Of a stretch of DNA of 64,000 nt, positions 17,386 through 62,979 are shown piece by piece; positions within the stretch are counted from its first letter, which is position 1; the number at the start of each line of letters is the position of its first letter. The DNA is from Marsupella aquatica (lineage: Eukaryota > Plantae > Marchantiophyta), in NCBI GenBank assembly GCA_973895155.1, contig OZ316892.1, forward strand, positions 18,590,357 through 18,654,356, written 5' to 3'. The translations under genes were made by a program, and so were the position numbers. The notes under the pieces are model-generated. The model was given only the letters and a program-made list of their open reading frames with translations, had not been told where the DNA came from and ran no database searches.

Positions 17386-17562
17386 GCAACAGCTGGCGAT
17401 TGGCAAGTATGAGGTTGAGGATGACTACCTGCACAGAGTCACAGAATGGGAATTGCTGCCTGGAATGATGTTTAGGATAGTTGGATATGCATGAAATTGA
17501 TTGATACTTTGAATTTAGTGTGCTGATTCTCCCTGTTTGGTTGTGGGTGCTGTGCAGAAGCT

Positions 17563-21234: not shown

Positions 21235-21562
21235 TGAAAGACTTATACATACCCCACAAAGTATATTTAAAGACTACCCTCCATAACCTTTTTAGTCGTT
21301 CCCAACAACTCACCATCACAGCCCATAAAAGACTGAAAACGACTCACCAAAGCTACCCACACAAAGACTAAAATAGACTGAAAATCCAGTCTATTAAACG
21401 ACTTATAAACCAGTTCTATAAAGGACTCAGTTGATTATAGTAACAAAACATACGACTCGCAGTCCTATAAAGGACTGGAGTCCTTCCCAGTCGTTTCCAA
21501 GTCCTATACGGTACTGAATAGTCGTTTAATGGGGTCTAAATACCCCCCGGTTTCTACTAGTG
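21235..21562 (-). mobile_element. CACTA-1 right end: subterminal GACT/AGTC repeats plus TIR
   Basis: Ends ccccggtttctactagtg = reverse complement CACTAGTAGAAACCGGGG at 21562, followed by tgg. Dense aagact/cgact/agtc motifs in both orientations. Confidence 0.9.
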
Positions 21563-33008: not shown

Positions 33009-36000
33009 GCCACTATCATGGAATTGTCCACAACGCTCTTCATCTTCACCAAATCTCCTCTTGCAAACTGTGAACAACACATTTTGTTAAAAATGCAATA
33101 AACATAAATTGAAAGATAGAAGAACACTCAAATCAAACACACATTTACCTTTGCAATGGGGTTAGGAGACTGCATTGGTTTCTACTGTGCAGGTGATGCA
33201 TTTGCTGAGGATGCTTTCTTCCTTTTCTTCTTTCCCTTTCTAGTTGATGGAGTGTCATCCTGCTCACTTGGAACAAGAGTTTCTTTTGGCAACTCAGATG
33301 ATTCTGGGGTTACATCTGGTGTCAACTGAGTCGACTTATCCTCTGGCAACTGAAAGGCATCTGAAATGGCTTCTTTGGGCAACTTAGATGGCAAAAGGTT
33401 CACTTCCAATAATTCAGTTTGCTTCAGAGTACTATTAGTTGTGTCAGTTGGTCTTCCCTGTGACACAGGAGGCTCCCCTAAAGATGCTGTCATAAAACAC
33501 ACACAAAAGAAATGCATAAACAAACATGTATACACCAGCAACATATAATCACACTAAAAACATGCAAGAACATTATAAACATGCAATGACATATACATAT
33601 CACAATAATTACATTGAATGGACAGTGTATACATGATAGAGAATTTTACCTTCATTATCGCCTGAAAAAGTAAGAGATCGCTTTCTACTACCTTGTTTGG
33701 TAGCTGTAGTCAACTTACTGTGACTAGGCACAACTGTTGGAACTTGTGCATTACTGGTTTGATGTGCCATCCATGTAGTCATCATGTTTGTCAACTCCCT
33801 CACAGTGCCTTTCAACTCAGCGACATCCCATTTCACAGCCCCAATGGCAGTGATCTCTTCTTTTGAATGTGGGGTCTGTAAATGAACCACAAACCAACAC
33901 AACATTCTCACTGTCAAACTTACAAACGACACAACACTCTGTCAAATGGAGAATGATGTACAAATCAAATTGGTATGACAATACTCACAGCTGATCCATG
34001 TTTGTATCCTTGCCCCAGTAAGCTAGCACTTTTACCCTCCCCACTTGCCAATGATGGGCTCACCTTTGCTCCCACAAAACTACCAGTCTGACCTTTTGCA
34101 CTTGCCAATGATGGGCTCATTGTCACCTTTGGCAATGAACCCTGACTACCATGGTTTTCTTTCAGGTCAAATATACCTGGGCTTGATCCTCTCTTCTGAT
34201 CCTGTTCAAACACACAATGAATGAGAATCACAGAGTCTATTTTCATGAAGATTCACAAACAAGACAGAATTGATAGTGAAAATGATAGACAATTTACCAT
34301 TCTCTTTGCTGCTGCAGCATGCCCTCCTCTTCCAAAGTGAGAGGTATCTTGCACTCGTGCTCTTTTATCAGTCATCTATTTACTCAAAGATATCAATGCT
34401 GGACTGGTAAAATGAGATACCAAAGCTGCCCATTTCTTTGGATCAACACCAGATGGCCCAGGTTTGGTTGGATCCTCATTGCAAACTTTCTTCCAGTAAA
34501 CATGCATTTTATGGCGCTCTCTCTTCAATATGCCACGACAATGTCTCTGGAATTTGGTCTTAATAAATTCCCCACCCACATACTTCCACTCAGCTGCCAT
34601 GTTATTCCACACTGTGGTTGTATGAACTTGTGGATGATCAGTCCATTTTGGCTTTGATACATCAAAGACTCTGAGTACGTTGCCACGAAGTTCCTCCAGC
34701 CAGTATTGTTTGTTGCCATCAGAATCATCAATATCATTGTCATAAATCTGCATTTCACAGACAATGTCAATTCATAACTCTGGAATTTATGCAGAGTCCA
34801 GGTTTTATACACACAACAACAGAGAGGATCAGATTTGTCTAAATCTACATTCAAAAAAAGTACAATACTCACTTTAATGTGTTTGGGCAAATCTCCATGA
34901 TCCCTTCGTTGTTTGGCAGTATTATCAAACTGCTTCTTAGCATGCCTTCATTCCCTGCGCATCTCAGAGGCCCCGCCTGCAATGCACACACATGCATTCA
35001 ATCAAAAAATATGTACATGATTGAAAAGTTGAGCAAATGCCCTTGCATATGCATGACGAGCAGATTGTGTATTACCTGAAGATCCTCTGGAATGTAGTAC
35101 ATCAGATTGACCTGATCTGCCTTCAGATGCTGATGGAACCACTAAACAAACACACAACACCAAAGCACTTCAATTAATTTCATTTCCAAGTAGAATATCA
35201 ACTTCCAAACACACCTGAAAAGTAGAACAGTACAATCCACTCACTTTCATATAAGAGTCCAGTGTCTGGGTCTTTCCAACATCTCACCAGCCCACCTCCA
35301 CCAGGCCCAGTCTTCTTAGGACCACGATTTTGTTTCTGTACCTACATCATGGACAAACGTAAGCATATCAACATATAATTTGAAAAAGGGACAAGGATCC
35401 CTTCCTATTAGGATGATGAAGTTCAAGCATTACCTGTTGTTCACTCTCTGGTTCTGACCCTCCAATGTCAGAGTCCTCAATGTCATACTCAGAAGGAGAA
35501 CCATAGCCATCATCACCACACTCTGCCATGTTCACCTTGGTAACTTCTGATAGTCTAGAGCTCCTCCTCTTTGGCAATGTTTCAGTTGAAGTACCTTTCA
35601 CCAAAGTAGGCTTTCCTCTCTCTCGTTGTACATGTGTGGTTGGGCCTCTAAGGAACAAAGCAATCATCAACATACACCAATGCAGATCAAACATACATGC
35701 AAAATGAATCTACAACACCGTAACACTAGTACTTATGTACAGGATCCATACTAGTATGAGACCAATCTGGAATATGAAAACAGAACATGAACCTGACAAC
35801 TTCATCTACTGAATGAAATTTGCAATAGACATATTAACACACACATCAGCATGCAGCCTGGCCCCAGTCCTAGATCATGCATAATTTTGACATTATGCTC
35901 TATGTTCCGCTTTCGGGCCTCCTCATAAGGATTCATAGAATATGACAACCCCTGCAATCTTCCTTTCCCAGGCTGCATTCACCAACTGCACAAATGGGTA

Positions 36001-36072
36001 AACCATTAGTCTGATTTCATATATAGTCCATACATGTAGTCCATCTATGGACTTCACACACCTAAAACCTAT

Positions 36073-39000
36073 TCACTGCTTAGGCCTGCCCTTTCTTGCA
36101 GATCCCTCTGCATCTCTACCTCGTTTGGGACCAGTACTTGGTCCTGGATTTGCTCTGGACCTACAGGCCTTAGCCAATTCAATGTGTAATTTGGCATTGT
36201 TTTCCATTGTAGCATGGAAATCAACGTCTGTGTAATCACCTAACACCCTTGTGGACCTGGATTCTTTGTGGAGGATTGTTCTCCATGCTATCCCCTTCTC
36301 ATTGGGGTGGAAGAAAACCTGCTCCACTTGCTTTGGGAAAACGTAATCCATTTTCTTGGACACACCCAGTTCTCTATGGAAATTCACTTGCCAAAGACCA
36401 GACTCAGAATACCTCATACTGGCAGAGGATTTAGGAGTCCATGATGGATCTGCCCATTTCCCTTTGAAAAGAATCACCCCTTTCCTCAAGCTGCCGTAAT
36501 TCAGTACTAAGATATCTGTCAAGGCCCCTACATACTGTACAGATTCTTCTCTAGTTGCGCTTGACCTGTCCACTCGCTTCTCAGTGAATGTCGAAGCCAT
36601 CCCAGAATCAAAAGTGCTGAATGCACCAGAATCACAATCACTCAAACACCCCAAGGATGGAATAGTCCTCTAGTGATGCCCATAGGCTCTGCATGCCCTA
36701 TACAGTCGTGCCTTCAAACTAGGTGGTGTGGAGTATGCAGATAGTAATGACCGCTCAGACTCTGTCTCAAAATTATGGGTATTGACTAATGTTTGAAACC
36801 ATTCCCTGAAAGGTGGCAGTTCTTGGCAATCAAGGGGAAATTCCACTGGTTTTCTTCGATTGGCAGGCTTCCTCATCCATTCCTTCCGGAAATCCACTCT
36901 TTGTTTGGTAACAGTCTCATTGGTAGCATCATATATCCTACATGGCAACAACAACACTCAAGACATTAGTGCACGATCCACCATGAATATACAAACACAA
37001 TGGGGCAGCATAATTATGATGCATATGGTACAGGGTTTACATACCTATACCATGGAGCCACTGTCTCTTCATTCTCCAATATATAATGATGCATGGCCAT
37101 CATTTCATCTGACCAATTCAAAGTTATCTCCTTTGCAGCCCCTTCCAAGACAATGCCTGCAACGCCAGCATCCTCCTCCAACTCCCAGGTTCGTTTTCCC
37201 TCTCCCTTAGCATCAATCATGTATTCAGAAAGGAATCCCAAAGACTCATCTAATACATAGCCTTCAGCCATAGAAGCCTCTGGACGTGCCTTGTTTTGTA
37301 CATAACCCTTCAAAACCTTCAGGTTCCTCTCTATTGGGTACATCCATCTGCCTGTAACTGGGCCACACAAGTCTAATTCCTCCACTAGGTGAATCATTAA
37401 ATGGGTCATGACATCAAAGAAGCTTGGTGGAAAATGGATTTCCACAATGCAGAGAGTGAATGCAACATCCATCATCAAATTCTCATACATTGAAGGGTCC
37501 CACACCTTCGTACAGATCTGGCGATAGATATTGCTCATCCCAGCTATGGCCAAGCGAACCCCTTCATCAAGTAATCCCATTGTTGCCAGAGGGAGAATCT
37601 GTTGCATGAGTTGGTGGAAATCATGTGATTTCAACCCAGAGAGTTTCTTGGATTTTGTAACACACTTTGCCAAAGAACTTGAAAAACCAGTGGGCCCTTT
37701 CAAGGTCAATAACACCTCCAAGAACCTTGTTGTTTCCTTCTTGCTCAGGCAATATGGGGCTGGGGGCATCAACAATTTGTCATCCTTACGCTTGGGAGCT
37801 GGATTGGGTACAAGCCATAGGTGTTGGCGTACCTGTAAGAGCTTCAGGTCTTCTCGCACAGAAGGAGTGTCCTTGGTCCCAATGATAGTGTGCACAATGT
37901 TGTGTGCAAGATTCTTCTCACAGTGCATGGGATCTAGACAATGGTTAATGAGTAGTTCCTGCAGTGGACACACAATTCAGAAATTAGGGCACTGAATACA
38001 ACAATTACAAAATCTGGGCTACAGGAAGTAAACACATTTCAAAGTCATATGAAGAGATTGCAGAAATTCATTGTAGTAGTATGGAGTCTTACGTTCCAAT
38101 AGGGTAACTTGTACAGACTAGTAGCCCTCTTCACTCCATGCACCTTTATGGGGCAGCTCTCATCCTCAACCTTGGTTCCTCCCTTCTTCAAATATTCTGT
38201 TGTCTCGTCTCCCCACTTCTTTCTATCAGAGCTTGACATTCTACACGGTGCAGGTCGGCTCTCAATTGCACCATCAAAGTATTGTGCACTGTCTGGTCTA
38301 CGAAAAAGATGCCTTGCTGCTAACCATCGACGGTGGCCACTGTACTCTAATTTCTGCAAGTGCTTAGAACCACGTGCCACACATTTTGGCCCACAGATGA
38401 CACATCCTTTGTATCCAGCGTGTTGTTGTCCAGATATTAAACCATATGCAGGGTAATCATTGATTGTCCACAATAGCACAGCCCTTAGGTTGAAGTGTTG
38501 AGACAATCCTGGGCGTGGCAATTTGTCAAAGCAGGGCACTCCTTTCGTCCACAACAGCTCCAGCTCCTCATAGAATGGGCCCAATCTTATGTCCAGTTGT
38601 TCCTCTGTTACTGAATCAGGTCCTGGAATCAGCATAGCTAGCATGACAAAGAACTTCTTGGTGGTAAGCCAAGGAGGTAAATTGTAATTCAACAACAAGA
38701 TTGGCCAGGTAGACCAAGCTGTGGAATTATTCCCAAAGGGATTCACCCCATCAAGTGCCAACCCAAATCGCACATTCCTTGGTTCAGCTGCAAATTTTTT
38801 ATCAATATTTGTATCCACATGCTTCCAAGCCTTGGAATCTGCTGCGTGCCAAACCATGTTGTCTGTGCTTCTATTCTCATGATGCCAAGTCATGAGTTTA
38901 GATGTACCAGCAGTGGCATACAATCTCTTCAACCTGGGAATTATAGGGAAATACCGCACCACCTTCCTTGCCTGTAATGAATTCCCCACTCTCTTCATCT

Positions 39001-39939
39001 TGGGCTGCTAACACACTGAACAGTTTTCTAACTTGGCATTTTCACCCCTAAAGAGCATGCAACCTTTCTCACAGACAGGGATTCTCTCATAATCCAAGCC
39101 AAGCTTTCTCAATAGCTGCTTTGCAGCATATAAGTTCTTGGGCAGATTATGCTCTGCAGGCATACCATGCTCCCCCATCAAAGACAACATGCATTCACTC
39201 CTTTGTTTGAGAATCCATGGCCATGACAGATGTTCAGCAGAAGCAACATGAATGACACAACATATATTTTGCTGCCTGGGAACAAAGGTTGCATTGCTGC
39301 ATCTAAAGATAACTGTGCAGGATCAGTCTCCACAGGAGTTTTGGAGGTTTGAAGGGGGTTTACAGGATGGGCACCTCCTTCACTCTCATCATCCCCAAGT
39401 ACAAAATCCAAGTCAAAACGGTCCTGATCATCTAGCTCATGCTCAGGGGATTCTTCACTGGTTCTCAGCAACGTTTCTTCCAGTAGAGCCCTGATATGTT
39501 CTTTGACATCTATAGTTGGATGTTCTTGAACATCCACAGTTGGATACTCTGGAACATCCACAGTTGGATACTCTGGAACATCTACAAATAAATGTTCTTC
39601 AACATCTATAGTTGGCTGTTGTGCACAGGTTGCCTGCTGAAGGTTTGCTACCCTCAATGCCTCAGGGCCATGTTGTAACATGTAGTCAGCACCCCACTCT
39701 TCATCAGAAGAGTCCTGTCCCTGTTTAATAAGGTGCAGTCTAGCAGTATTCCGATTAGTCCTATAATTCCCTTTGCAGTTCACACAAGGGCAGTACATCT
39801 TATGGTCCCCACTCTTGTGGCAGGCCTTCTGTTCTCGAACCCACAAAGCATCATCACGATGTTGTACTCTAGCTGGATGGAAGAGCGGCAACTTTGGAGT
39901 TCTACCCACACCTAACGTATTCTGTGGCAATTGTGCCAT
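36073..39939 (-). pseudogene. CACTA-2 TnpD transposase, two introns, several lesions (~39180, 39008, 36670)
   Basis: CPCVNC; YFPIIPRLKRLY; GLALDGVNPF; YNLPPWLTTKKFF; NDYPAYG; DPMHCEKN; KSHDFHQLMQ; FPPSFFDVMTHL; RWMYPIER; YVFPKQVEQVFF. Confidence 0.95.
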
Positions 39940-40512
39940 GCTAGCTTGATTGAAATTGTATTCAAACTATGATTTTCAAACTGAATCAGAGTGACATGCA
40001 TACAAAATTGGGCCTACCGTCACAGTTGTACAACCGATGCCAACCACAGTCCAATTGCTCAAACCCACAGAGCCCAGTTTCTCAAATCCACTGTAGTAGG
40101 ACACCTTCTCCTTCTTGCATACAAATAGAGCATCACATACAATGTCATCAGAATGATACTATGAACGTAAATCTCTGTGCCTTCATCATTTCCAGTATTT
40201 GTTTGCCTATTAGGAATGTGAGCAGACAGGTCTGGAATAAGTAACGTTTGTGACACCAGTGACAAATTTACAAGTGAAGTTTAGACATCAATATGGAGGA
40301 AAGTCACACTCAAAGCACTTGCTTGAAAATCAGAATCCTACCCTGGAAAAGATAATAAAGTTGATTTCTCAAAATTAATTGCCTCAATCCGCAATGCACT
40401 GTCGTAGAGTGTGTATACATGAGGAGTTCATCAAACTGCATATAAATAGTCCACATGTTTTAGCACTCTGAAAATTGTTTAAGTGCACGTGAAACCATCA
40501 AAAAGCTCTATC

Positions 40513-45060: not shown

Positions 45061-48000
45061 CTCAGACCCTACATCAGATTGTGAAACAAGAAGGAATAAC
45101 AGGGTGCAGCATGACACAAAAGAATGAGGGTGCAGCATAAAATATGACATGTAACCACAAGGGTGCAGCATAAACCAATGCTTTATAGATGGCAAAGCAT
45201 TTAGGACTGAGCAGCGCAAATAACCTTGGCCTATGATTGGAAGCAATCACAAATATTGCAACCTGTATGCCTTCGCTTGCTGTACAGCAGTGCTCACTCA
45301 CCTTGCCTTTTTAAAATCTGTAAGGGCAACACAGAACAAATAGCAATTGAGTTTCAACAAAGCATTCATTTGGCTCTCAAGTTTTAAAATGGACAGAGCA
45401 AACACAACAATGTGCACAACAAAGCACAGAGAGCAACAAAACTCCAGCAAACTGGGACTCAGGCAAGAGATACGAATTTTAGCAGCGAAATCAAATCAAG
45501 ATTCAGACCTGTGAGTTCAACATGCAGTGCTCACTCACCCTGCCCTTTTTTAAATCTGTAAAAATCAAGTTTTATTGTGTGCCTTCTACATCTTAAGCTA
45601 CTGCACACATCTGTTACAGAACCATAAGTTGCTATACTCTCAACAAGCTGCTGGTCCACCCAATTTTTCAAAAGCTGCACCGTACTCTATCTTCGTGCAC
45701 AAATGACTATACCGGGCTGCTGTCAGAGACCCTTACAAAGAATTTAAAATTGACCAAGCTGATTTTAGTTTAGTTTCGTCCAGTTTGCAGACCAAAGGAA
45801 ATCATGTGGCTGTATTCATTGCTGTGTATGGATGTTGTGTGAACATCAGACAGTTAGCTGTAAATTACCATAGTTGAAGAGCAAGGCTTGTACAAAAGCC
45901 ACTAAGGAATTCTCTGAGGTGGCACAGCAGTTGGCAAACCACACACGAAACTCTGAAACTTTTTGGCGACAAAATTCTACAGAGTCGCTGCTGGAATCAA
46001 GTGAGGATTCACCATACATGCCTGCACTGCTCTTCAGTAAAAAAAAGAGAAAAGAAAAGGGCTATGATACAGAGGGATGTCAAAAGAAGAGTAAGGAAAC
46101 CAATTCATTGAGGAACATAGATAGACTAAGGAAAACATCATACAATGGAAAACTAAGGACTACATTGTAATAATAAGAGATCAAGCTCACCTTGCACCAC
46201 AAAGATTGTCACGAGTCACCTCGCAGTTCCTCGCAGCTTAGGTCCAGGATGACATTTCAATATGGAGGAGAGGAGTTTACTCATTTAAAACAGAGAAGGA
46301 GTGGCATCTACAGGGACTTTGGCAACACACTGAAAAGGTTGGCGATACATCAGGTTATCTTTCTAGGTTGACACTGCCAATAGAATTTTGAACACAACAA
46401 ACACAACAAACACTGCCAGATATAGAATTTTGAACACAAGGGTATGGCATCCTGATTTGCCTAACTCAATCAACTTAATAGCATATTTTTATGTTCAATT
46501 AGGCAGCACTAAATAGAACAGCCTTTCACGCAGTCAGAATAATTGGCAATAATTGCCAGACGACAACAAGACAACAAACTGAACTGAACATAGCAGACAA
46601 ATCCAACAAGTAGCAATCAGAAATCAACAGCAGACAGACAGAGGACAACTCGGTCAGAACTCGGGCACTTGATTTAGTTGTGGTAAATAGCCTTTCAAGT
46701 TCTGGACAAGCAAGAGCAATACATGAGCAGACTCCAGAAAAATCATCTCTTGAGATTGAGGAGAAAGGCATTCCCCAGCCAGCTTACCTATGTCTTGAAA
46801 AATGTATCGGACATCGTGGACGTTGGGCCTCAGCTGCTGGCCGCAAGGGAAGATTTTTCCAAAACAAACAATAAAGCTCGAAGATAGTTAAATTTCTTAG
46901 GTCATTCTAAATGGGGACTGAATTAGCAATTAGAACTAGTAAACCCTGATCTTGGGCAAGCAGAGAGAGAAGACTCTGCGCCTAATACTTATGTCTACCC
47001 GAATTTTACTGGGACATATGAGCATTGGGATGGCATTGCAAAGCAGAATTTTGTAGCAGTGGAAGGAATCAACATAGATAGCAGTGGAAGGTCGCAGTGG
47101 AGCTAGCATGGGACAGGGAAGGAAATGCAGGCACTTGTGATGCAAAAGGCTATAGAGGGTGAGAAGGTGGACAACCAAACTCAGCAAACTCAAAGAACAT
47201 GTAGCAAATGGCAATAGAATTGAAGATCAGAGAACCTGAGTGGGCAAAAAATTGATATAGATTGTAATGGGCAATAAAGAAGCTCAACCGGGAGACTAGC
47301 AGTAGTGGAGACAGTTCCGTCTTAAATGGAAAAGGAGAGATATATACAATAAAGAGAGACGTCCTTTAAAGTAGAAATTGTCTGAAAAGTAAGTGCAGAT
47401 AAGTGCATGCAACAGGAGCGGTCACATACAAATTGAGCAGATCCTCTCAAGGCTACAGAGGGCGAGAAGGTGGACAACCAAACTCAGCAAACTCAAAGAA
47501 CAAGTAGTAAATGGCAATAGAATAGAAGATCAGAGAACATGTAGCGAATGGAGAGGGATAGATAGAGAAAAAACATAAGCAGAGAGCTCTGGCACACAGC
47601 AACACAGGTTCCAACACAGCACATTGCAGGTCCCAGGCTGGGGTGGAGCCGGAAGTGGAGAGCACAGAGCAACCAGGCAAATCACAGCATGGGCGCCAAT
47701 GGGAATAAGGTCAATACCTTTGAGGCGGAAGCTAGCAGGCCTCAACTTGCAGGTAGCAGCTTGTGCTCTGTTGCCTTCCGCAAGTAGCTTGCACTCTCAG
47801 CTTCCGCAATGAGTCGCCCTCTCCCCTTTTGCAAGCAGCTGCTCGACCTCTCCCCTTCCGCAAGCAGCTTGCCTTCTCCCCGTCCGCAATCAGGTCACCT
47901 CTCCCCTTCCGCAAGCAGCTCGCACCCACTTAAACCACAACTCGGGGTACATAAGGACCCCAAGCCCTGCCCACGAGCGTGCCACTCTGCCCGCTGGGTC

Positions 48001-48539
48001 AGAGACCAGTTCGAACCCGAGGGACTAACCCGGGGTCAGCAGGGCCGCCCTCCCCTCTCCCACCAGCCCTAGACTGCGACGAGCTGCCCCTACGAGCTGC
48101 TCGCCTCCTCCCCGCTCCTCCCTTCGACCCCTGCGAGCTGCTGGCCTCCTGCAAGCTGCTCGCCTCCTCTCACACTCCTCCCTTCAAGGTTTTGGCTACC
48201 ATAGCCAGCCACAGTGTGCCCATGCTCGTTGCACCATCTGCTGCCCCTGGTTGCTGTTGCCACTCAATCGATTGTCGAAGCTTGATGCATCCTTGGCTGT
48301 TGGTGCTTCATTCAACTTGCTGCTTCATTCGACTTGCTGCTGACTTCAACTCGCTGCTGCTGGGGCTGTTGCTGCCGAGGCTCGCTGCTGCCTCCCAGCT
48401 GAATGTGTATGGCCTCCTCCCTTTGAGCTTACGGCTGCCATAGCCATCCACGGACTGCCCTACTCACTGCGCCCTTGGCTGCCCCTGTTTGCGAAGCTCT
48501 TGGCTGCCCCTACTCGCTGTTGCTGCTCGATTTCCTGCT

Positions 48540-49140
48540 TGATCTCGCTGCTGAAACAATTTTGTGCTTCAACTCAACTTGCTGCTAAATAGATTTGCTG
48601 TTTCAACTCATTGCTTGAACTCGCTGTTGAAGCTCACTGCTGAAGCTCGCTGCTGAATCTTGCTGCTGCCTCGGCTCTTGCTGCTGAAGCTCGCAGCTTC
48701 AACTCGCTGCTGCCCTCGCTCGCTGCTGCCTTGGTCCAAGCTCGCTTGCTGCTGAAATCTTGCTGCTGCCTCGGCTATTGCTGCTGAAGCTCACTGCTTC
48801 AACTCGCTGCTGCCCGAGCTTGCTACTGCCTTGGTTCAAGCTCGCTTGCTGCTGCCTCGGCTGTTGCTGCTGAAGCTCACCGCTTCAACTCGCTCTTGCC
48901 CTCACTCATTGCTGCCTTGGTCCAAGCTTGCTGCTGAATCTTGCTGCTGCCTCGGCTGTTGCTGCTGAAGCTCGCCGCTTCAACTCGCTGCTGCCCTCAC
49001 TTGCTGCTGCCTCGGTCCAAGCTCGCTGCTTCAACTTGTTGCTGCCTCTGTCCAAGCTCTCTTGCTGCTTCAACTCGCTTCTGCCTTGGGTCCCTCACCA
49101 ACCTCGATTGCTGCTCAAGCTTGCTCATTGCTGCAGGTCA
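48540..49140. repeat. Degenerate GCTGCT-rich minisatellite inside the Kolobok element
   Basis: Repeated tgctgctgcctcggct..tgctgctgaagctc.c.gcttcaactcgctgctgccc units. Confidence 0.8.
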
Positions 49141-49430
49141 AGGTTGCTCGCTCCATAGCTCAAGCTCCTTGCTCATGCCGTTGTGCCCACATTCCAGCTT
49201 CAGCTTCACTAGGGATAGTGTCAACTCTCTGGTCCCCTCTCCTCCTTCGTTACATTGCAATGTCAATTTTTGAGCAATGTAGTATTCATGTCTTGTTGCA
49301 ATGAGTCAGACTTGGTTTTGGGTGATTTGAGTCGGTCTCTGCTGGATCTCTATTGTTGAATTCATATTTTATGTGAGTGTTGGGCAGCAACAGCATATGT
49401 GATATTTGAGTGTTTGATTTTTTCAGGAAC

Positions 49431-49829
49431 ATGGCACCAATTCGAAAGTTGAGAGCCACATTGACTGAACATGACAATGGGACCTACACCTTGAGTTGGC
49501 AGGATCCTGCTGATGTTGGCGATGCTCCACCTATTGTCCGGACTGTCACATTGGAACAAGTCCAAGCTGATTTTCCTGAATTCTCTACTACAATTTCAGA
49601 GTGTCACATGGATCTCAATCCTGTAGTCCCGATTGAACAATTTATCATGTGCGCAGCATACAGTTATGCTGAAACTGTCATGAGAAGGAAAAGATTTCAG
49701 GTCTACACTCACTTGGCTTACATAGCAGGGTTTTCTGATAGAACCAAGTTTCCCGAAGCTGTTGAAGCTTGTGTGAAGGCGACTTGGCATGATGAAGGGG
49801 AGGAATTTGTAGGATTTATTCCAAATTAG
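49431..49829 (+). CDS. KolX-like protein (P2X7 ballast/nanor-type C-terminal motif)
   Basis: RRKRFQVYTHLAYIAGFSDRTKFPEAVEACVKATWHDEGEEFVGF resembles R..AY......G...R...P.CV...IR..FP...Y.GF. Tail-to-tail with the transposase; splice acceptor at 49426. Confidence 0.6.
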   Translation: MAPIRKLRATLTEHDNGTYTLSWQDPADVGDAPPIVRTVTLEQVQADFPEFSTTISECHMDLNPVVPIEQFIMCAAYSYAETVMRRKRFQVYTHLAYIAGFSDRTKFPEAVEACVKATWHDEGEEFVGFIPN

Positions 49830-49913
49830 GAGTACACAGGCTTCTGCTATATATGTTTCACATTTGTTTGAAATTTCTGCCAAGATCTACTAATAAACTG
49901 TTTGCAGAGTATA

Positions 49914-49960
49914 ACTCCTGCTGGTTGGCAGCAAAAGGGGTTCAATTCCCCTTGGGAGTA
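49914..49960 (+). ncRNA. tRNA-like (mascRNA-like) structure downstream of the KolX-like ORF
   Basis: Acceptor ACTCCT/GGGAGT (6 bp) stacked on AAGGGG-TTCAATT-CCCCTT (6 bp). D-like arm GCTG-GTTGG-CAGC; discriminator A. Confidence 0.6.
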
Positions 49961-50149
49961 CATGGCTATGGGTTAGACATGGGTTAGAGTACCACAATTG
50001 CAATTTTTCTAGGAGGAGAACTCTTGTTTGAAATATTGTGCATCACAATTGCACCTGTTACAGGGAGACAACTCTTGCTTTTGTTTGGCAGCATGAAAAG
50101 ATCAATTCCCTTCAGATGTTGACATATTCAATGAAACCAAAATGAGACA

Positions 50150-50530
50150 AGGTTGTCAAAGGGACCCAAATGATACTACCTCTCAAAGCGGCCCAGAAAT
50201 GCCATATGTCAACCACAAACTTTACTCATTCCCTCACTTTGGTGCTCCACTTCTAAACTTTTCTCATTCCATCACTAGGTTGGCAAAGGGACCCAGATGA
50301 TTACTACCTCTCAAAGCTGCCCAAAAATGCCATATGTCATTCAATAACCACAAACTTTACTCATTCCCTCGCTTGGTGCTCCACTTCTAAACTTTTCTCA
50401 TTCCCTCACTTGTTGCCCAGGTTATAAGACTGTCATTCAATAACCACAAACTTTACTCATTCCCTTGCTTGGTGCTCCACTTCTAAACTTTTCTCATTCC
50501 CTCACTTGGTGCCCAGGTTATAAGACTGTT
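50150..50530. repeat. Short direct repeats between the convergent Kolobok genes
   Basis: Three copies of aaccacaaactttactcattccct..cttggtgctccacttctaaacttttctcattcc. Confidence 0.85.
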
Positions 50531-51024
50531 TGGGCGTGGTATGAAAAAAATTGACGAAAAACATAATTTATAAAAGTTTGAAATTTTGGCATAGCATTCC
50601 AAGTTGATTGTAATAGGGTACCCCCAAGTCCGGATTGCTAACACTATCCATGCAAAAAGGATGAAATACAAGTGGTGCCAGGTCTCAGCCCTCCTCAAGG
50701 AAATCACCCCTGCAATGGTAAACAATAAAATTAGCATTGAGGTACACAAAATGACAAATTTTCACACTACAATGAATTGTTTCCAGAAAGAATAAGTCAC
50801 AATTTTCACTCACATGAGGTATGTTAGCCGAGATCATATATGGAGGTGTTACTCCATATGTACGCTGATCTTATAGAGAGAAAGTACTTGGGTGGTAATG
50901 TCTGAGCATCTAGGATGACATGAAATCATCCTGCAAAAAAACAATTTGTAATTAGAATTACCTCAAACATACCCTATCCTTACATTTTATGCTTGCAATC
51001 ATATTTATGGAGGAGTGTCTTACC

Positions 51025-54000
51025 TCATGGACTTGTCACACCATAAATGCGTTCACTTGTTGTGTCCTTCCAACTAGTGGTGCGGTCCACCAATACTCGT
51101 GTTCGAGGAGGACGCTCTCTGACACTTGTATTCACAGGTTTGCGATCATATACCTTCCAAACATGTCTTCTTATATTCTCGTTCCAATCCATGGCAGCAC
51201 AACACAAACGGGCCTCATGGCTTGCCAAAAAATGAATACGCTTGGTGGCATACTTGCCCATGACGGAATGGTAGGTCTCTGACATGAAATTCTCCCGGGC
51301 CATGGTATAAAACCTCATCTTCGCAAGAGTAATGTATTTTTTCATGAACTTTTGCATAGCCTTGTGAGTCTCCCCACCTACATGCACAAAGTACAAAAAT
51401 TCAATAAAAAAGTCATGCATGGAAGTTCAATCATGCTAACATGTGACATAAGTCACAAAAGGAGGTCACAAATTAAATTACTTACCTCTTGCATAGTAAT
51501 GGTCAAGCTGGATAGCTTCTGCTTCCTCAAGATGCTGACAAGGTCTGTCAGATAATCTCGCACATAAACTATGATCCCCGGCCCAATGATCACCACAATT
51601 GCTCAACGCGAAGGCCAGAGATGCAGCGTCCCCCCCACTGCATATTGAACATTCTATAGTCAATTAGGGTAAAATAAACCCAAACCAAACCAACATTAGT
51701 ATTTACACATTATATCAAATTGAAAAGTCACCAAACATGAACATTGTAAATACCTGCTCTTACATCGTCGACAACATACATAAAACCAGGTCTTGAACTT
51801 TGTGGCAATGTTGTGCTGAGACAACTCTGGGTACTTGAGACCATGTGTCGGAATATGTACTAGTTCACCTAGAGGCAATCCACGCATGTCGCCAACTTTG
51901 TGAACAAGTGCTTCCTTCCTAAGGGTTGAATACCCTCTCACTCCCCGTGCCTTGAGCCAATCCTGTAATCTCTTAGCGGTTACTGCTTGCAACTCAGAAC
52001 GGGATGCGGCAGTATCAATGTCAATAGTCACAGTATATGTGGCGCTCACCATCTTCTCCACAAACTTCTTGACAAGGTTTTTGGCCTTGTGCCACAAGTC
52101 CTTCTGGTTCCTAATCTCCATGTCCTCCACAATATTATCAATAGTGGCTTTGTCATCATGGATAACCTCTATGATAGAAATGCCAGCCTCTCTCAGATTA
52201 TCCAATGCCCTCTGAGTACCCTTGTCCTCCATGTGCCAAGCATTTCTCTCCTCTCTTCTAGTAATTGTGACCATCTCAATTACCCTATTATCTTCCATGC
52301 TCAAAATAGAGGTGGTACCATGATAATCGCTCCGAGAAGAATCCCATCGAGTATCCAAATACACTACTAACCCAGGGTCTGTCATAACCAATGCATATAG
52401 TAACTATTAGAATCAAAACTCATCATGACCCAATAAGACTTTGATCCTTGAGTAACTAGAGAAAGTGAAAGAGGGTAAAATAAATTACTTACTAGTCTCA
52501 GTTGCTCGCCTCTGCTGAATAGTATCCCTCAATTGCTGCCACATATGCCTTTTGTTTTCTTCCCATTGCTGTCTCACAACAGCTATCCATCCACCCCAAG
52601 GACGACCACGACCACTCTGAAAGTCATGCCAATGAGCTGCAGTGGGGACATGTAATCCAAGATGCGCGGCAACAGCAGCCAAGGAGGTATAGGTGAGGCC
52701 AGCACAAAGGGTGGAATGATACAACTGAGGGGTAATCATAGGCGAACTCCTCCCAGGCTCATTGTCACCCGTAACAAAAGTCCAGCCATGTCCATCCTCT
52801 CCACAACCAATATGAATAGACCACAACTGATGCAACTCGGACACTCGCTCAACTCTTGGGATCCGAGGACATGCATGTATATGACACCGGGGTAGTAGCC
52901 TGTCAACAAAAGTACCCAACAAGTTGCGATCAAAAAATGCTACCCTGGCTGGTACACGAGGGCTCGTTCTACGAGTCGGGAGTGCGTCGGGAGGTCATAA
53001 CGGCTGAGAGTCAGGTGCGTGAGATGCCTGAGAGTCTGCAACCCGGGATGGCTGATCATTGGCCTCTGGAGATGGCTGAGGGTCTACATCTGGAGAAGGT
53101 CGAGACGTCTGGGAATCGGGGACGATGAACAACTCCTGTAAAAAATGTCACGGATATGAATTAAAGATTGTGTCTCAACAATTGCAAAATTGTAATGGGA
53201 AGCCTTGGATAATGTGAAAGAGCTCAAACCTGGAAGGTATCCCCATCCCCAATGTGGTAAGCTCCTAAAGCTGCAACAACATCTGGATCATCATCCCGAT
53301 ACATGGATTCATCTTCTGCATCTGATCCATATTGCTCTGCAATATTCTCGTCTAAGACAACATCGTCTTCGAGTAGTGCATCCTGGAAGACAATGTTGGG
53401 ATTATACAAAAATAAATACTCCACAAATATGGTTACAATAAATCCTAAGGTAGAGTTTGACCAATAATTATTGACCATATTGGTGGAGGGTTATTGAAGC
53501 CAATTTTCTTCAATAAACACAAACCTGACAATTACAATACAGCACGAGCTTCAATGAAGGGTTTATATATTCAAATATAAATATATGTGCTTGTTTATTA
53601 TGACCCTTGAGTACCCTAATACCTGACCTAATCAGGTTTACTAAATTTTTGTTTCAAATAGAAATTACAATACAGTACGAGCTTCAATGAACCTGGGTTT
53701 ATATATTCAAATATAAATACATGTGCTTGTTTATTATGACCCTTGAGTACCCTAATACCTGACCTAATCAGGTTTACTAAATTTTTGTTTCAAATAGAAA
53801 TTACAATACAGCACGAGCTTCAATGAAGGGTTTATATATTCAAATATAAATACATGTGCTTGTTTATTATGACCCTTGAGTACCCTAATACCTGACCTAA
53901 TCAGGTTTACTAAATTTTTGCTTCAAATAGAAATTACAATACAGCACGAGCTTCAATGAACCTGGGTTTATATATTCAAATATAAATACATGTGCTTGTT

Positions 54001-54763
54001 TATTATGACCCTTGAGTACCCTAATACCTGACCTAATCAGGTTTACTAAATTTTTGTTTCAAATAGAAATTACAATACAGCACGAGCTTCAATGAAGGGT
54101 TTATATATTCAAATATAAATACATGTGCTTGTTTATTATGACCCTTGAGTACCCTAATACCTGACCTAATCAGGTTTACTAAATTTTTGCTTCAAATAGA
54201 AATTACAATACAGCACGAGCTTCAATGAAGGGTTTATATATTCAAATATAAATAATTATGCTTCTTGGTACAATGGGAGACTTTCATTTTCCTTCAGATG
54301 TGATTTATTATTTATGTTTCAAATAAGAAGCATAGTACATGATAAGCCTAAATCAATGGGTTTATACAAAGGGCCAAAATGAATTGCTAAAATGGGCAAA
54401 TATTGAGTAAATGAAAGGAGGTTCCCACCTGAAGTGATGACTGTGAAGCCTGACCCATGTGCTGACCACTTGTGGGCGAAGGCATAGCCTCGGGTGGAAT
54501 TGGAGCGGCCTCAGCTGCTCGCCATACCCGAAGCTCCTGAACTATAGGCCGTGCACGATCAAGTAACCATGTGACCACAGTAGAGTGGGTCGTATCCTGT
54601 CCAAGTAGAGCTCTAAGGTCCTCCCACTCATCCCACCGGTCAAGTGGGACCCGGATTTCGGGCTTGGCATCCGGTCTCCGCCTCTTCTTGTAATCGATGT
54701 CATCACTCGGATATCGCTGCCTTGGTGGACCACCACCCTGTGGGGGTCGTTTCCGCCTCCCAT
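51025..54763 (-). CDS. Kolobok-type DDE transposase, multi-exon, with a SAP/HeH-like insertion (5' exons tentative)
   Basis: Exons ~53136-52493, 52378-51754, ~51653-51486 and 51377-51025 have GT-AG borders. Motifs: LDTRWDS (D), MEDKG, IHDD (D), DLWHKAKNL, DHWAGDH..C, MSETYHS..GKYATKR.HF...AR....DWNEN (E). Confidence 0.8.
53531..54254. repeat. Near-perfect tandem array, ~5.4 units alternating 133/136 bp
   Basis: Unit starts (attacaatacag) at 53531, 53664, 53800, 53933, 54069 and 54202; units alternate gaaggg and gaacctggg. Confidence 0.95.
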
Positions 54764-56069
54764 CCGGAAGAGGGGGGGGGGTGACCCGGCATACTCATAC
54801 TAGCCTATCCTAAAACCTACACTAAAAAAAAACCTATAAGCTCTAAACGGAGAACGGAGACCGGATGCCAAGTCCAACCCGGCAAGCAACTACAAAGTTG
54901 CACCAAAAAACCTCAAGTTGAACACAAGTAGAAAGGTAGTAAGAGGTGAGAATAAAAATTTGGGGAGGACAATGAGGCCTGAATGCAAGCACACAGGCTC
55001 TTTGCCCCCTGCCAGCCCTCTACCCCTCTTCCCCATTGGCTACATCCCCTTAGATCCTGGTCGTCCAAAGCATTTTTTTTAGTAACCCTAACACGTTCCC
55101 TAACCAGCCGCCGCGCTAACTCACGTTGCAGAATTTTTTCCGCCACCCACATAGGGCAGCGCACACTGCAGCTGCCAAAAAGGTACGTACAAGTCACACA
55201 GAGGACACTTGCGAGTTTTGAACCTGAGACCTCAAGTACACAGGCAGGAGTTTGAACCGAAATGCTAGGGGGAAATCTTCGAAAATAGCAAAGCAAAAAC
55301 TATAACTAAACTAATGAAGGCCGCTCAGGCCCACAAGGGCAGGGCCGGGGCCCTCTTTGGCCGGATGTCCCACACAACAAAGGCCTGTGCTGCCCGACCA
55401 TATGAGAGCCTGGCCGCACCCGCGAAGGAGCCCTGCCACAGGCATTTTCCGCAGGCCAGATGTCCCCTGCCCGACCTGCCCGAAACTTTTCAAATTTGAA
55501 TTTGTGGCTCTGCCAATCAGAACACTGAATTTGTTTTTCACAATTTTCTTTCTTATTTTTTATCATTTTTAATCCTGGTTTTTTTGTATACGTAGATCTT
55601 GAAGAGATCTTGAATTTGAACCGTGGATCGGGTCATTTGGTGGACGGATAAGATTTTTGCAAGCTTCGATCGAAGGGCTGGCGACGGGCGCCCGTCCGCA
55701 AATGCGAATGTCGTGTTTTTGTTATGTCTACTCCGGGTCACCCGGAGTACTTGTAGTACGATTTGTGGTTTAAAGAAACAAATGTTGAGACCAAACAAAC
55801 AACCGGCTCCCTTACGCAAACTCCACAACCTCTTCAAGAAGCTATCATCGACCTTCCGCAACAAGAATCATTTCCTCCCTGCTTTCACTGCCTCCACAAG
55901 CTTCCATAGCAATCGCCTTCCATGATGATCGGGGCCCCAGTGCGCAAATGCCTTCCGCATCCACCTTGCGCAGCTTGTTGCCGATCGTAGCTCCTCACCC
56001 ACAGCTCGTGACCCGCAGCTTGTCGCTCGACTGTTTCTGATTGTGTCCGGCTCTTCCTTCTGCAGCTCT

Positions 56070-57814: not shown

Positions 57815-59642
57815 TATGTGAAAATGACCCAATGAAGAGTATACTACCTCTCGGAGTGCCCCTTTAAAATTCCTTTGGGAATTAATAGAATATATCCAAA
57901 ATCCAAATATCGGCACAAACATGACATAGTTATATAGAAGGACATAGTCTTCCACTAGTATTGCACTATATACCTCTTGGAGAGACAAAAACAATTTTTG
58001 TATGCATGCCTTAGGATGGTATGCATGCATGGTGACACTTTTGGCAAATCACTCCAAAGTTGTATGACTTGGGAGTGATTTCCCCAAGGTTGCATCATCC
58101 CTTAAGTAATTGCAAAAACATGGCTCCAAAGTGCTCATGGTGCAACTAGTGGTTGGAGAATAGTGGGTATAGTACCCCGCACCTTGTGGAGAGGTTGCCA
58201 CCTTCATGTAGAGCCCCATGGCACACTAGGGCCACCTTAAGCTCCTAGACCCAAAAGGGTCATTTCTGATGGTCCGTAATGACACCATGAGGGACCTCTA
58301 TAATGACCCCATATGGAGTCATTTGGCACAAATGACTTCCAAAAGGACTGCCAAAATGACCCTTACTGCAGTCTTTGGCATTAATGACACACTATTCCTC
58401 CAAAATGACCCAATGAAGATTACAACACCTACTCACAATGCCCCGACACTATTCATATGCAAAATGGAGTATTCCCCATCCAAACACCGGCACAAACATG
58501 ACACAATTACATCACAAGATGACAACCTTCCATTGGTGTTGCGCTACTTCTTGGAGAGACAAAAAATGGCTCCATTTGCGCTTGGATACAGTGGTATGCA
58601 TCCATGGTGACACTTTTGGCAAATCACTCCAAAGTTGTATGACTTGGGAGTGATTTCCCCAAGGTGCATCATGCCTTAAGTAAATGCAAAACCATGTGTC
58701 CAAAGTGTTCATGGCACAACTAGTGGTTGGATGATGATGAGTAGTGTCCCGCACCTAGTGGAGGGGGTTCTCACCTCTATGTGGGGCCCCATGGCACTCT
58801 AGGGCCCACCTCCAGCCCCTAGCCCCAAACTGGTCATTTGTGCTTCTGCTTAATGATTGCACAAGGGACCCCTCAAATGACCACAAATCCAGTCATTTGA
58901 CTTATGTGACAGCCCATATGACAGATTTAATGACCCTACTTGTAGTCATTGGTATTTATGACACCAATTTTTTCAGAAATGACTCAATGAAGATTACACT
59001 ACCTTCTTGAGTGCCCCATCACTATTCATTTGCAAAATAGAATATTCCCCATCCAAACACCGGCACAAACATGACACAATTACATGGAAGGACAACAGCC
59101 TTGCACTACTTCTTGCAGAGACAAAAAAAATGGCTTCATTTCCTTTAGATAAGATGGTATGCATCAGTGGTGACACTTTTGGCAAATCACTCCAAAGTCG
59201 TACGACTTGGGAGTGATTTCCCCAAGATTATATCATCCCTTAAGTAAACACAAAAACATGGCTCCAAACTGCTAATGGTGCAACTAGTGGTTGGAGAATA
59301 GTAATTATAGTATTTGACACCTAGTGGAGGGGTTGCGAGCTCTATGTGGTGCCACATGGCACTCTAGGGCCCACCTCCAGCCCTTAGCTCCAAATTGGTC
59401 ATTCATGCTTGTCTTCAATGACTGCACTAGAGACCCCTCAAATGACAACAAGTCCAGTCATTTGAATTATATGACATCCCATATGACCAATTCAATGACC
59501 CTACTTGTGGTCATTGGCACTTATGACATGACTTTTTTGAAAAATGACCCAAAGAAGGTCCTAGTACCGCCAGAGAGAGCCCGCTCTACATTCCTTGCAA
59601 AAATGGAATAATCGTATACCTTTAAACATCAGATACATCATA

Positions 59643-60280
59643 GGCCTCATTCACAATTGGGTGTACCTCTCAGGAACCACTTTCAGGACTCAAAAACATG
59701 TTTTTTTAGTGAAAAATGACTTTCGTAACATGGAAAAAGTTTCATCATGATTTTATCTCAAGACATTTAAGTCTAATTTTTTCACAAGACTATTTTACAT
59801 GGTGTAACCTACCTCATCATGTAGATAAATCAAGTTTTTAACTTTTTTAAGGGATCCTATTATTGATGGCCCTAAATAAGGCAAAATTACTTATTATTTT
59901 TGTCCTGTACATAAAGGTTTAGTGTGTGTCAATATTTGAGTTTTAAAATATAAGATTATTCTATTAGTATGCATGCCTTGGTAAAATTTTATTGTCTAAA
60001 ATGCATTTTTTAGAGTCCTTTTGAGTCCTGAAATGATGTGACTCGTTGCGTGACAAGTCCTTTTATCGATCTTTGAAGGACATATAAGGAAAGCTTCAAA
60101 GTCTCAAATGCTAGATAGTTTAATTAATGTTACCAACCTACAGGATGTTTATTAAGTATAGTACATCAAATCTTGCATATCATCTCATTACACCTTACAA
60201 ATGATGTCCTAAAGCATAATAAACTATGGTCACTTGTGAGTGTGTCGTTCCTTTTGGGTCCTCCAATTGTGAATGAGGCC
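59643..60280. mobile_element. MITE copy 2, 638 bp, same TIR, TSD CATA
   Basis: cata|GGCCTCATTCACAATTGG ... CCAATTGTGAATGAGGCC|cata; internal sequence highly similar to copy 1. Confidence 0.9.
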
Positions 60281-62979
60281 CATAGAGGGAAGCACCACTG
60301 CCACACCCATTCCATTGGTGTTGCGCTACCTCTTGGAGAGACAAAAAAGGGCTTCATTTGCGTTTGGAACAGTGGTATGCATCCATGGTGACACTTTTGG
60401 CAAATCACTCCAAAGTCATACGACTTGGGAGTGATTTCCCCAAAGGTGCATCATGCTTTAAGTAAACGCAAAAACATGTGTCCAAGGTGTTTATGTCGCA
60501 ACTAGTGGTTAGACAATGATGAGTATAGTGTCCCGCACACAGTGGAGGGGTTCTCACCTCTATGTGGGGCCACATGGCACTCTAGGGCCCACCTCCAGCC
60601 CCTAGCCCCAAACTGGTCATTTGTGCTTTTCCTTAATGACTACATAAGGGACCCCTCAAATGACCACAAATCCAGTCATTAGACTTATATGACTCTCCAT
60701 ATGACAGTTTTAATGACCCTGCTTTTAGTCATTGATATTTATGACGGGCCATTGCTCACATATGACCCAATAAAGGCCCTAGTACCTCCAACTAAAGCCA
60801 GCTTTAGATTCCTTGCAAGGTTGGAATATTCCTCTTCCCTAAACCCGCACCCACACCATACAGGGAAGCACGACTCCCCTGCCCATTCCATTGGTGCAAC
60901 ACCACCTCTTGGAGAACCAAAAAACAACTTTTATTTGCCTTTGGATGTGATGGTGTGCATGCATGGCAACACTTTTGGCAAATCACTCCAAAGTCATACG
61001 ACTTGGGAGTGATTTCCCCAAAGGTGCATCATGCCTTAAGTAAACGCAAAAACATGTGTCCAAAGTGTTTATGTCGCAACTAGTGGTTGGACAATGATGA
61101 GTATAGTGTCCCGCACCTCGTGGAGGGGTTCTCACCTCTATGTGGGACCACATGGCACTCTAGGGCTCACCTCCAGCCCCTAGCCCCAAACTGGTCATTT
61201 GTGCTTTTCCTTAATGACTACATAAGGGACCCCTCAAATGACCACAAATCCAGTCATTAGACTTATATGACTCTCCATATGACAGTTTTAATGACCCTGC
61301 TTTTAGTCATTGATATTTATGACGGGCCATTGCTCACATATGACCCAATAAAGGCCCTAGTACCTCCAACTAAAGCCAGCTTTAGATTCCTTGCAAGGTT
61401 GGAATATTCCTCTTCCCTATATCCGCACCCACACCATACTGAGAAGCACGACTCCCCTGCCCATTCCATTGGTGCAGCACCACCTCTTGGAGAACCCAAA
61501 AACAACTTTTATTTGCCTTTGTATGTGATGGTGTGCATGCATGGCAACACTTTTGGCAAATCACTCCAAAGTCATACGACTTGGGAGTGATTTCCCCAAA
61601 GGTGCATCGTGCCTTAAGGAAACACAAAAACATGTGTCCAAAGTGTTTATGTCGCAACTAGTGGTTAGACAATGATGAGTATAGTGTCCCGCACCTCGTG
61701 GAGGGGTTCTCACCTCTATGTGGGGCCCCATGGCACTCTAGGGCGCACCTCCAGCCCCTAGCCCCAAAATGGTCATTTGTGCTTTTCCTTAATGACTGCA
61801 TGAGGGACCCCTCAAATGACAATAATTCAGGTCATTCCGCTTATATGACATCCAATGTGACCATTTTAATGACCTTTCTTGTAGTAATTGGCATTTATGA
61901 CGGGCCATTGCTCACATATGACCCAATAAAGGCCCTAGTACCTCCAAAGAGAGCCAGCTTTAGAGTCCTTGCAAGGTTGGAATATTCCCAAACCCTAATC
62001 CCGCAGCCACACCATGCAAAGAAGCATGACTCCCCTGCCCATTCCATTCGTGCAGCACTACCTCTTGGAGAACCAAAAAACAGGTTTTATTTGCCTTTGG
62101 ATGTGATGGTATACATCCATGGTTGCACTTTTGGCAAATCACTCCAAAAGTCATACGACTTGGGAGTGATTTCCCCAAAGGTGCATCATGCCTTAAGGAA
62201 ACACAAAAACATGTGTCCAAAGTGTTTATGTTGCAACTAGTGGTTGGACAATGATGAGTATAGTGTCCCGCACCTAGTGGAGGGGTTCTCACCTCGATGT
62301 GGGGCCCATGGCACTCTAGGGCCCACCTCAAGCCCCTAGCCCCAAAATGGTCATTTGTGCTTTTCCTTAATGACTGCATGAGGGACCCCTCAAATGACAA
62401 TAATTCAGGTCATTCCGCTTATATGACATCCAATGTGACCATTTTAATGACCTTTCTTGTAGTAATTGGCATTTATGACGGGCCATTGCTCACATATGAC
62501 CCAATAAAGGCCCTAGTACCTCCAAAGAGAGCCAACTTTAGATTCCTTGCAAGGTTGGAATATTCCTCTTCCCTAAACCTGCACCCACACCATACTGAGA
62601 AGCATGACTCCCCTGCCCATTCCATTGGGGCAGCACTACCTCTTGGAGAACCAAAAAACAACTTTTATTTGCCTTTGGATGTGATGGTATGCATGCATTT
62701 ATTTGCAAATTAAAATATTCCCCGTCCAAACACCGGCACAAACATGACACAATTACAACAAAGCATGACAACCTTCCATTGGTATTGCCCTACTTCTTGG
62801 AGAGACAAAAAGGTTTCATTTGCCCCATGGATACGATAGTATGCGCGCATCTATATATGATGACACTTCTGGAAAATCACTCCAAAGGTGTATGACTCTA
62901 CAATTATGATAGGTGTCTGGAATGACTATTGAGTATTTTAATCTTCATATCTCTTGGGTTCTTTAATGACTCTATAAGT

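Follow-up and report, generated by a model that had tools for sequence, protein, structure and literature searches.

Among long non-coding RNAs, MALAT1 and NEAT1 have been called the sole ones known to mature through the tRNA machinery (PMC12941219), and the use of RNase P has been described as setting MALAT1 and MEN-beta apart from all others (PMC7583470). In their tRNA-like product mascRNA, the acceptor stem comprises positions 1–7 and the D-arm positions 8–18; the elbow joins G14 and G15 to a C and two As of the T-loop, and the C16-G10 pair forms a triple with A44, which is a U in medaka (PMC11693755). In plants, RNase P of the protein-only type (PRORP) reportedly requires an acceptor stem, a D loop, and a T loop, the anticodon arm being dispensable; the enzyme contacts G18, G19, and C56 and cuts mitochondrial t-elements (PMC3858429; PMC4975455). 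Nuclear PRORP processes tRNA-snoRNA precursors (PMC3858429), viral structures are named among its non-tRNA precursors (PMC7881203), and in Arabidopsis the Pol II transcript GUT15 releases a CCA-tailed tRNA-like RNA (PMC6152437). Triple-helix elements termed ENE are known in plant and fungal transposon mRNAs (PMC7583470).

Kolobok transposons of the Kol0 group combine a TTAA duplication, a DDE transposase with a DxxH motif, and a KolX partner gene; in the main text of the report on Kol0, land plants are absent from the host list and the word "tRNA" does not occur (PMC9587614). A literature search, judged on top-ranked titles, term counts, and the beginnings of abstracts, returned no report of a transposon-borne mascRNA-like element and none of Kolobok in land plants. 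Here we describe a 47-nt tRNA mimic that lies behind the KolX-like gene of a Kolobok-like transposon, within a 64-kb window (the whole stretch of DNA that was analysed).

A Predicted tRNA Mimic of 47 nt

The mimic occupies positions 49914–49960 of the plus strand, where the sequence is exactly that given in the preliminary description of this DNA. It was delimited from the sequence, the Rfam alignment, and RNAfold, and its conserved extent was taken from public assemblies. In the predicted fold it consists of an acceptor stem (49914–49919/20 paired with 49953/54–49959), a D-arm (49920/21–49931/32) with GG at 49927–28 in the loop, a short linker (49933–34), a T-arm (49935/36–49952/53, T-loop 49941–49947), and the discriminator A49960, and it resembles the top half of a tRNA. 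The base at position –1 (A, 49913), immediately 5′ of the predicted RNase P cut, was added from the loose ends of assembled contigs.

The minimum free energy of the 47 nt was –20.7 kcal/mol (RNAfold, z = –2.61), and 2 of 200 shuffled sequences folded equally well. In this fold the acceptor stem measures 6 bp and the linker 2 nt; the D-stem of 4 bp closes a loop of 5 nt whose last letters are GG, and the T-stem of 6 bp closes a loop of 7 nt. Folding of the 101 nt around the mimic was not exceptional (z = –0.84), and in contexts of 171 and 361 nt 13 of the 14 tested pairs formed with probabilities of 0.77–0.98, one U-G pair reaching about 0.5. The stack of acceptor stem and T-stem is 12 bp long in either of two registers, as had been claimed; the contrast of "6+6 versus 7+5" drawn in the same claim is not firm, since 6+6 is indeed the fold of minimum energy but Rfam aligns the mimic as 7+5, like mascRNA (–15.2 for 7+5 vs. 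–20.7 for 6+6 by nearest-neighbour energy).

Among 4227 Rfam families scanned, RF01684 (mascRNA-menRNA) gave the best of seven matches in the window, covering 49914–49960 with 32.2 bits (E = 0.013), below the gathering score of 42.5 bits. A minus-strand match to Plastid-ycf2 (E = 0.6) was discarded as the mirror image of the mimic's own hairpin. ARAGORN detected no tRNA gene in the 64-kb window. In a canonical tRNA gene or tRNA-derived SINE head the A and B boxes lie about 30 nt or more apart, whereas the D-loop GG of the mimic and its B-box-like word are separated by 10 nt, and this candidate was rejected. The earlier argument for an RNA structure rather than a SINE head was borne out by this spacing and by the extent of the conserved unit, whose limits are the base preceding the acceptor stem and the discriminator. 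A Helitron end was dismissed as well: no CTRR follows the unit, which is internal to an element flanked by TTAA. We consider it very probable that the 47-nt mimic is a selected RNA structure.

The Mimic Lies in a Kolobok-Like Transposon

The surrounding element of 7.8 kb (47934–55769) has TTAA on both sides (47930–33 and 55770–73, one of two such pairs found in the window) and terminal inverted repeats identical at 10 of 11 positions. Its KolX-like ORF (49431–49829, plus strand) encodes 132 aa counted from the ATG. The protein appears similar to the C-terminal half of the P2X7 ballast fold; the Cys-rich part is missing, as is the conserved Cys cluster. The ORF itself had no Pfam match, while 42 representatives matched the profile of its family. 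Among 31 scanned relatives one (P0036) hit P2RX7_C at 8e-12, and P0036, which had itself been retrieved with a profile of the KolX-like family, matched the wider family profile with a probability of 96.9. The assignment as KolX-like in the preliminary description agrees with the P2RX7_C match of P0036 and with the family profile. Among ten relatives looked up, Calypogeia fissa accounts for one of the named ones and Riccia sorocarpa for four. KolX-based locus searches in viral contigs and prokaryote genomes found nothing.

On the minus strand a spliced DDE transposase gene (51026–54728), which is Kolobok-like and includes a SAP domain, converges on the KolX-like gene. Six of its seven longer homologues are Riccia proteins (37–42% identity), the motif DLWH in its frame fits the C/DxxH of Kolobok DDE enzymes, and one homologue (P0004) weakly matches PF20700 (E = 6e-4). 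In Riccia, a member of the KolX cluster and a transposase homologue carry the adjacent locus tags R1sor_012019 and R1sor_012020. The transposase has a putative spliced 3′ UTR (50600–51023, minus strand), drawn from a motif scan with donor-like sites at 51023 and 50813 and acceptor-like sites near 50932 and 50711. The element shares with Kol0 the TTAA duplication, the DDE transposase with DxxH, and the KolX-like partner; it differs in its termini, which read AC...GT instead of the 5′-RR...YY-3′ of the Kol0 definition, in a KolX without the Cys-rich part, and in its host, probably a bryophyte to judge from the named homologues (Riccia sorocarpa, R. fluitans, and Calypogeia fissa). Given the termini and the missing Cys cluster, we call it Kolobok-like and not plain Kol0.

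The mimic begins 84 nt past the stop codon of the KolX-like ORF, close to the 85 nt estimated before. The spacer (49830–49913, plus strand), which is a likely 3′ UTR, is little conserved between copies; it holds the AATAAA expected near 49892 (49892–49897) and a branch-point-like word followed by a CAG that ends at 49907, a possible splice acceptor. Directly behind the intact mimic we found two decayed units that had been overlooked: a strongly decayed 5′ part (49987–50048, plus strand, local alignment score 41) and a third unit with broken stems (50040–50133, plus strand, alignment score 73; 17 bits and E = 0.03 for 50077–50120 with a covariance model).

The Kolobok-like element contains further repeats. 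Two B-box-like words about 35 nt apart at 55205–55275 (minus strand) are possibly a decayed tRNA-derived SINE head. Tandem arrays occupy 53530–54336, with units of 133/136 nt in an intron of the transposase, and 48600–49100, with short GCT-rich units upstream of the KolX-like ORF. Beyond the element, 57999–62800 is a tandem array of a 578-nt satellite.

A Sister Element Behind a P-Like Transposase

The claim of a sister element with the same T-arm and another acceptor stem proved correct. The sister mimic (10144–10203, plus strand) carries an identical T-arm, a different 7-bp acceptor stem, no D-stem, and an extra 6-bp hairpin, and it begins 126 nt past the stop codon of a P-element-like transposase gene (5447–10017, plus strand). 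The 17-mer of the T-arm has two exact matches in the window, the mimic and 10179–10195. In the 7+5 register, acceptor pairing between the two elements is kept at 7/7 positions, and at four of the seven both partners are changed. Both elements (2/2) stand in sense orientation behind a stop codon. Judged from the letters, the identical 17-mer would fit a shared origin of the two mimics as well as an independent one. Against RF01684 the sister scored 23 bits (E = 3.3).

The two transposases, P-like and Kolobok-like, show no profile similarity (probability 0.2), in line with the unrelated superfamilies stated before. The P-like family counts 133 homologues, many in Riccia and some in a fern and in marine animals; no Pfam model matched it above cut-off, PF21787 was weakly matched in 3 of 41 homologues, no solved structure matched its profile better than E = 0.13, and terminal repeats or ends of the P-like transposon were not found in the window. 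Upstream of the sister mimic, at 10035–10115, a U-rich unit of about 40 nt occurs twice and is followed by a G-rich stretch; an A-rich tract is absent there. The window also holds two CACTA-type elements (11785–23486 and 26347–39966; Transposase_21, DUF4218, DUF4216), next to which stand ORFs that contain BRCT and NIF-phosphatase domains and may be cargo genes.

A descriptor of T-loop hairpin plus 7-bp acceptor stem, composed after both elements had been seen, hit two sites in the window and none in 100/100 block-wise shuffles, while T-arm hairpins alone occurred three times against a shuffle mean of 1.06. The covariance model suggested in the preliminary description, built from both elements and run on the window, recovered the two elements and the decayed unit and nothing else, the next matches having E-values of 0.68 and 0.89. 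Because only 3 of the 17 sites from a relaxed T-arm scan of the window pair completely, none of the CACTA, BRCT, or NIF genes was seen to be followed by a comparable mimic. The mimic pattern was found 0 times in viral contigs and 0 times in prokaryote genomes. A scan of metagenomes gave at least 118 loci, by eye mostly ends of bacterial or archaeal tRNA-Ala or tmRNA, and no member of the mimic family was established among them (ARAGORN was run on 29). In five of these loci (L017:4001–4029 on the minus strand, L096, L107, L069, and L093) both scanned motifs occur 4–10 nt apart; ARAGORN called no tRNA in L017 and L069, and the ORFs of L017 show no clear gene.

Copies of the Mimic in Public Assemblies

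Seven runs were considered, five of which hold words sampled from 49400–52500 (organisms A and B); the other two are their study-mates (organisms C and D), which hold next to no such words. Four of the seven (X1, X2, X3, and X5) were aligned to 49350–50700 and four (X1, X3, X6, and X7) to 49903–49972, all of them as assembled contigs. No RNA data set carrying the sampled transposon words was among the listed runs. The window may itself stem from X1 or X3, so A and B do not count as independent support; C (X6) and D (X7) come from one study. The mimic was recovered in dozens of contigs from four organisms, with differing flanks.

Many copies are present in the two further organisms, C and D. 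In C 32 contigs and in D 26 contigs align to 49903–49972, with almost nothing beside the mimic; depth is zero at 49903–49908 and at 49966–49972 in both. Loose ends begin precisely at 49913 in at least 14 of the 32 and at least 15 of the 26 contigs, and at 49913–15 in at least 21 of 32 (C) and at least 22 of 26 (D), counted among 24 of 45 rows listed. All the aligned pieces that were listed (8 per run, 32 of 122) span 49910–15 to 49959–65 with 2–9 other letters. The pieces in C and D are not T-arm fragments of real tRNAs, because 8/8 of those listed per run cover the whole unit. Three contigs of D (records 24, 26, and 27 of X7; 14.2, 12.1, and 7.8 kb, of similar depth) have the mimic 1.1–1.4 kb from one end, and they look as though it adjoins a repeat at which the assembly breaks.

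In A and B, 6 of the 15 joints listed (18 in all) jump from 49717–49846, the end of KolX coding sequence or the first UTR bases, to 49899–49928, and the coding pieces listed for these copies are about 80–89% identical to the window. Diverged copies thus retain the KolX-like gene and the mimic, while the spacers stop aligning. One further joint leads from 49961 to 50674. A copy with two units in tandem is shown in X1 and X2 by a joint that runs backwards, from 49964 to 49908, and a loose end in X3 agrees with it. Three substitutions were listed inside the mimic, all at the unpaired linker 49933/49934, in a listing that covers the middle of the unit (at least 21 letters from the contig end in the rows shown). 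In a GCAA variant, found in one contig each of X1 and X3, a longer stem with a GCAA tetraloop replaces the D-loop and the GG is lost. Taken together, the public assemblies point to selection on the 47-nt unit.

Flanks were read by eye from consensus letters of loose ends, with 12–30 nt visible per copy. The commonest upstream flank in C and D has an A-rich run and then a 6-bp hairpin with a 4-nt loop, ending 2 nt before the mimic; between two consensus lines one stem pair of this hairpin is changed on both sides. In C, some of the flanks on the downstream side look like the upstream flank, a likeness that suggests tandem arrays in this organism as well. Directly behind the window copy there is neither a T-run terminator nor an A-tail with target-site duplication, the view elsewhere being the 12–30 nt of flank. 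No U-rich/A-rich triple-helix module was found by motif scan upstream of either window mimic: the 250 nt before the 47-nt mimic contain one T4 and one A4 run, and the 30 nt visible in C and D contain A-rich runs.

Comparison With mascRNA, t-Elements, and GUT15

The mimic shares several features with mascRNA and menRNA (MALAT1, NEAT1; RF01684). A D-arm of 11 nt follows directly on the acceptor strand without a linker, the stack has 12 bp and the T-loop 7 nt, position –1 is an A, and the unit lies near the presumed 3′ end of a Pol II transcript. The likeness of the D-arm to mascRNA noted before can be extended: G10-C16, U12, G14, and G15 share their numbers with the crystal structure of mascRNA, while C, A, A in the T-loop, followed by a U at the triple position, are those of medaka mascRNA, a comparison of letters and not of structures (PMC11693755). 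On the other hand, the mimic has no anticodon-like arm, as had been observed: 2–4 nt, and 4 nt against RF01684, stand in place of 15 model positions. It also differs in falling below the Rfam cut-off, in having no upstream triple helix, in following a protein-coding transposon gene, in being multi-copy and sometimes tandem, and in belonging to a plant lineage, given which convergence is likelier than homology.

Plant mitochondrial t-elements are likewise truncated tRNA-like folds at mRNA ends, handled by RNase P/PRORP and RNase Z (PMC1920247; PMC3858429). They are described as organellar and single-copy with no shared motif, whereas the mimic is a sequence family in nuclear transposon DNA; its host is an intron-containing transposon among CACTA and copia pieces, not mitochondrial DNA. 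In GUT15 (PMC6152437) and in tRNA-snoRNA dicistrons (PMC3858429) a tRNA-like fold is released from a longer nuclear plant transcript, and GUT15 is the nearest nuclear plant case; unlike the mimic, its near full-size cloverleaf sits inside an intron of a non-coding RNA, and the dicistrons contain real tRNAs. ENE elements are comparable as structured RNA modules in the 3′ region of transposon mRNAs, but they grip the poly(A) tail and are not tRNA-like (PMC7583470). By analogy, the mimic would work like mascRNA/menRNA (PMC8457004; PMC12941219) and t-elements (PMC1920247). It is a member of neither: its score, the lacking anticodon arm, and the lacking triple helix exclude it from the former, and its compartment from the latter.

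A Possible RNase P/Z Signal and Alternative Explanations

With slightly better than even confidence, we propose that at the 3′ end of transposon RNA the 47-nt mimic would serve RNase P and RNase Z as a cutting signal. Pol II transcribing the KolX-like gene would read through the mimic in the likely 3′ UTR, and the D-loop GG would dock on the T-loop. Plant protein-only RNase P would then measure the 12 bp and cut between 49913 and 49914, and RNase Z would cut after discriminator 49960, freeing a mini-RNA of about 47 nt; both cuts are predicted from the elbow residues and the known requirements of PRORP. As the AATAAA lies 16 nt upstream, the RNase P cut could mark a poly(A) site, and the upstream mRNA might be tailed via an A-rich word 16–25 nt upstream where one is present, or alternatively be capped by a short hairpin as in organisms C and D. 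The downstream piece would be degraded and Pol II released, so that the 3′ end of the transposon transcript is set or forced. The next plus-strand AATAAA past the mimic (50724) lies inside the putative 3′ UTR exons of the convergent transposase; an early end would therefore limit read-through into the transposase transcript, with less double-stranded RNA and less silencing.

Several observations count against cutting. With the AATAAA 16 nt upstream the RNA could end even if RNase P never cut it, the GCAA variant loses the GG, and the element at 10144 has no D-stem. The RF01684 score is under the cut-off, and the hairpin seen in C and D is reduced to 3 bp at best in the window copy. As no triple-helix module lies upstream, the cut mRNA would have no evident protection there.

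The mimic may also be bound and not cut. It would then recruit tRNA-binding proteins that serve the stability, export, or translation of the mRNA or its movement from cell to cell, and the mRNA would be polyadenylated in the ordinary way further downstream. tRNA-like motifs are mobility signals of plant mRNAs, the structural and conservation evidence fits equally well, the AATAAA at 50724 would be available, and the GNRA variant retains a fold without the elbow. Nevertheless, a cutting enzyme reads just such features as the conserved base at –1 and the strict stack of 12 bp (PMC4975455; PMC8457004), and PRORP normally accepts substrates in which a free 5′ leader joins an intact elbow (PMC3858429). 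We regard binding in place of cutting as unlikely. Quite improbable, in our opinion, is a role as DNA, in which a B-box bound by TFIIIC would form a chromatin boundary between the convergent genes and the stems would be incidental. The most invariant part is the 17-mer, and it contains a B-box-like word; a B-box needs no acceptor stem or D-arm, yet conservation extends to the acceptor ends, both window elements keep their pairing through four double changes, and 2/2 are in sense orientation behind a stop codon.

If the mimic were a very small Pol III gene, or a SINE-like unit, that has a TATA-like promoter upstream and was inserted into several transposons, this would account for the many dispersed copies with different flanks, for the tandem copies, and for A/T-rich words 20–30 nt upstream in C and D. 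Such a unit is difficult to reconcile with the absence of A-box spacing (10 nt from GG to the B-box word), with downstream flanks that are mostly A-rich and show a T4 run in 1 of the 13 "behind" rows given, and with the same place being kept in Kolobok-like copies whose coding DNA is 11–20% diverged; we think it a shade less probable than action as DNA. The lowest probability falls to control of splicing, with an intron in the 3′ UTR whose acceptor lies 6–7 nt upstream of the mimic, for which the GUT15 tRNA-like sequence, which inhibits splicing of its intron, provides a precedent (PMC6152437). A pyrimidine-rich YAG indeed stands 6–7 nt before all three window units and in several flanks in A, B, and D, and one diverged flank (X3) keeps the branch-point-like word and not the AATAAA. 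On the other side, GG and not AG stands at the end of the flanks in organism C and of one flank in B, no good donor lies between the KolX stop codon and the mimic, and the A-rich DNA found upstream in C and D does not resemble plant introns. Cutting by RNase P and RNase Z is the reading we prefer.

Significance

To judge from sequence, the mimic is a real, conserved module of mascRNA shape. Its place at the 3′ end of a gene in a plant transposon of Kolobok-like type, and that of its sister after the P-like transposase, would be a new setting for such elements. More generally, though this is doubtful and offered tentatively, early-diverging land plants may harbour mascRNA-like modules shared by unrelated DNA transposons, which would enlist nuclear RNase P and RNase Z of the host as an alternative pathway of 3′-end formation and termination that avoids antisense overlap and silencing. 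If true, the MALAT1-type 3′ end would be a strategy that transposons reinvented far outside vertebrates, with a short hairpin replacing the triple helix, and maturation by the tRNA machinery would be extended to protein-coding nuclear mRNAs and to mobile DNA. The mimic would then be a natural, very small substrate of PRORP and RNase Z, plant constructs might employ it as a compact signal for processing, and for the transposons it would be a new way of ending transcripts and perhaps of escaping silencing.
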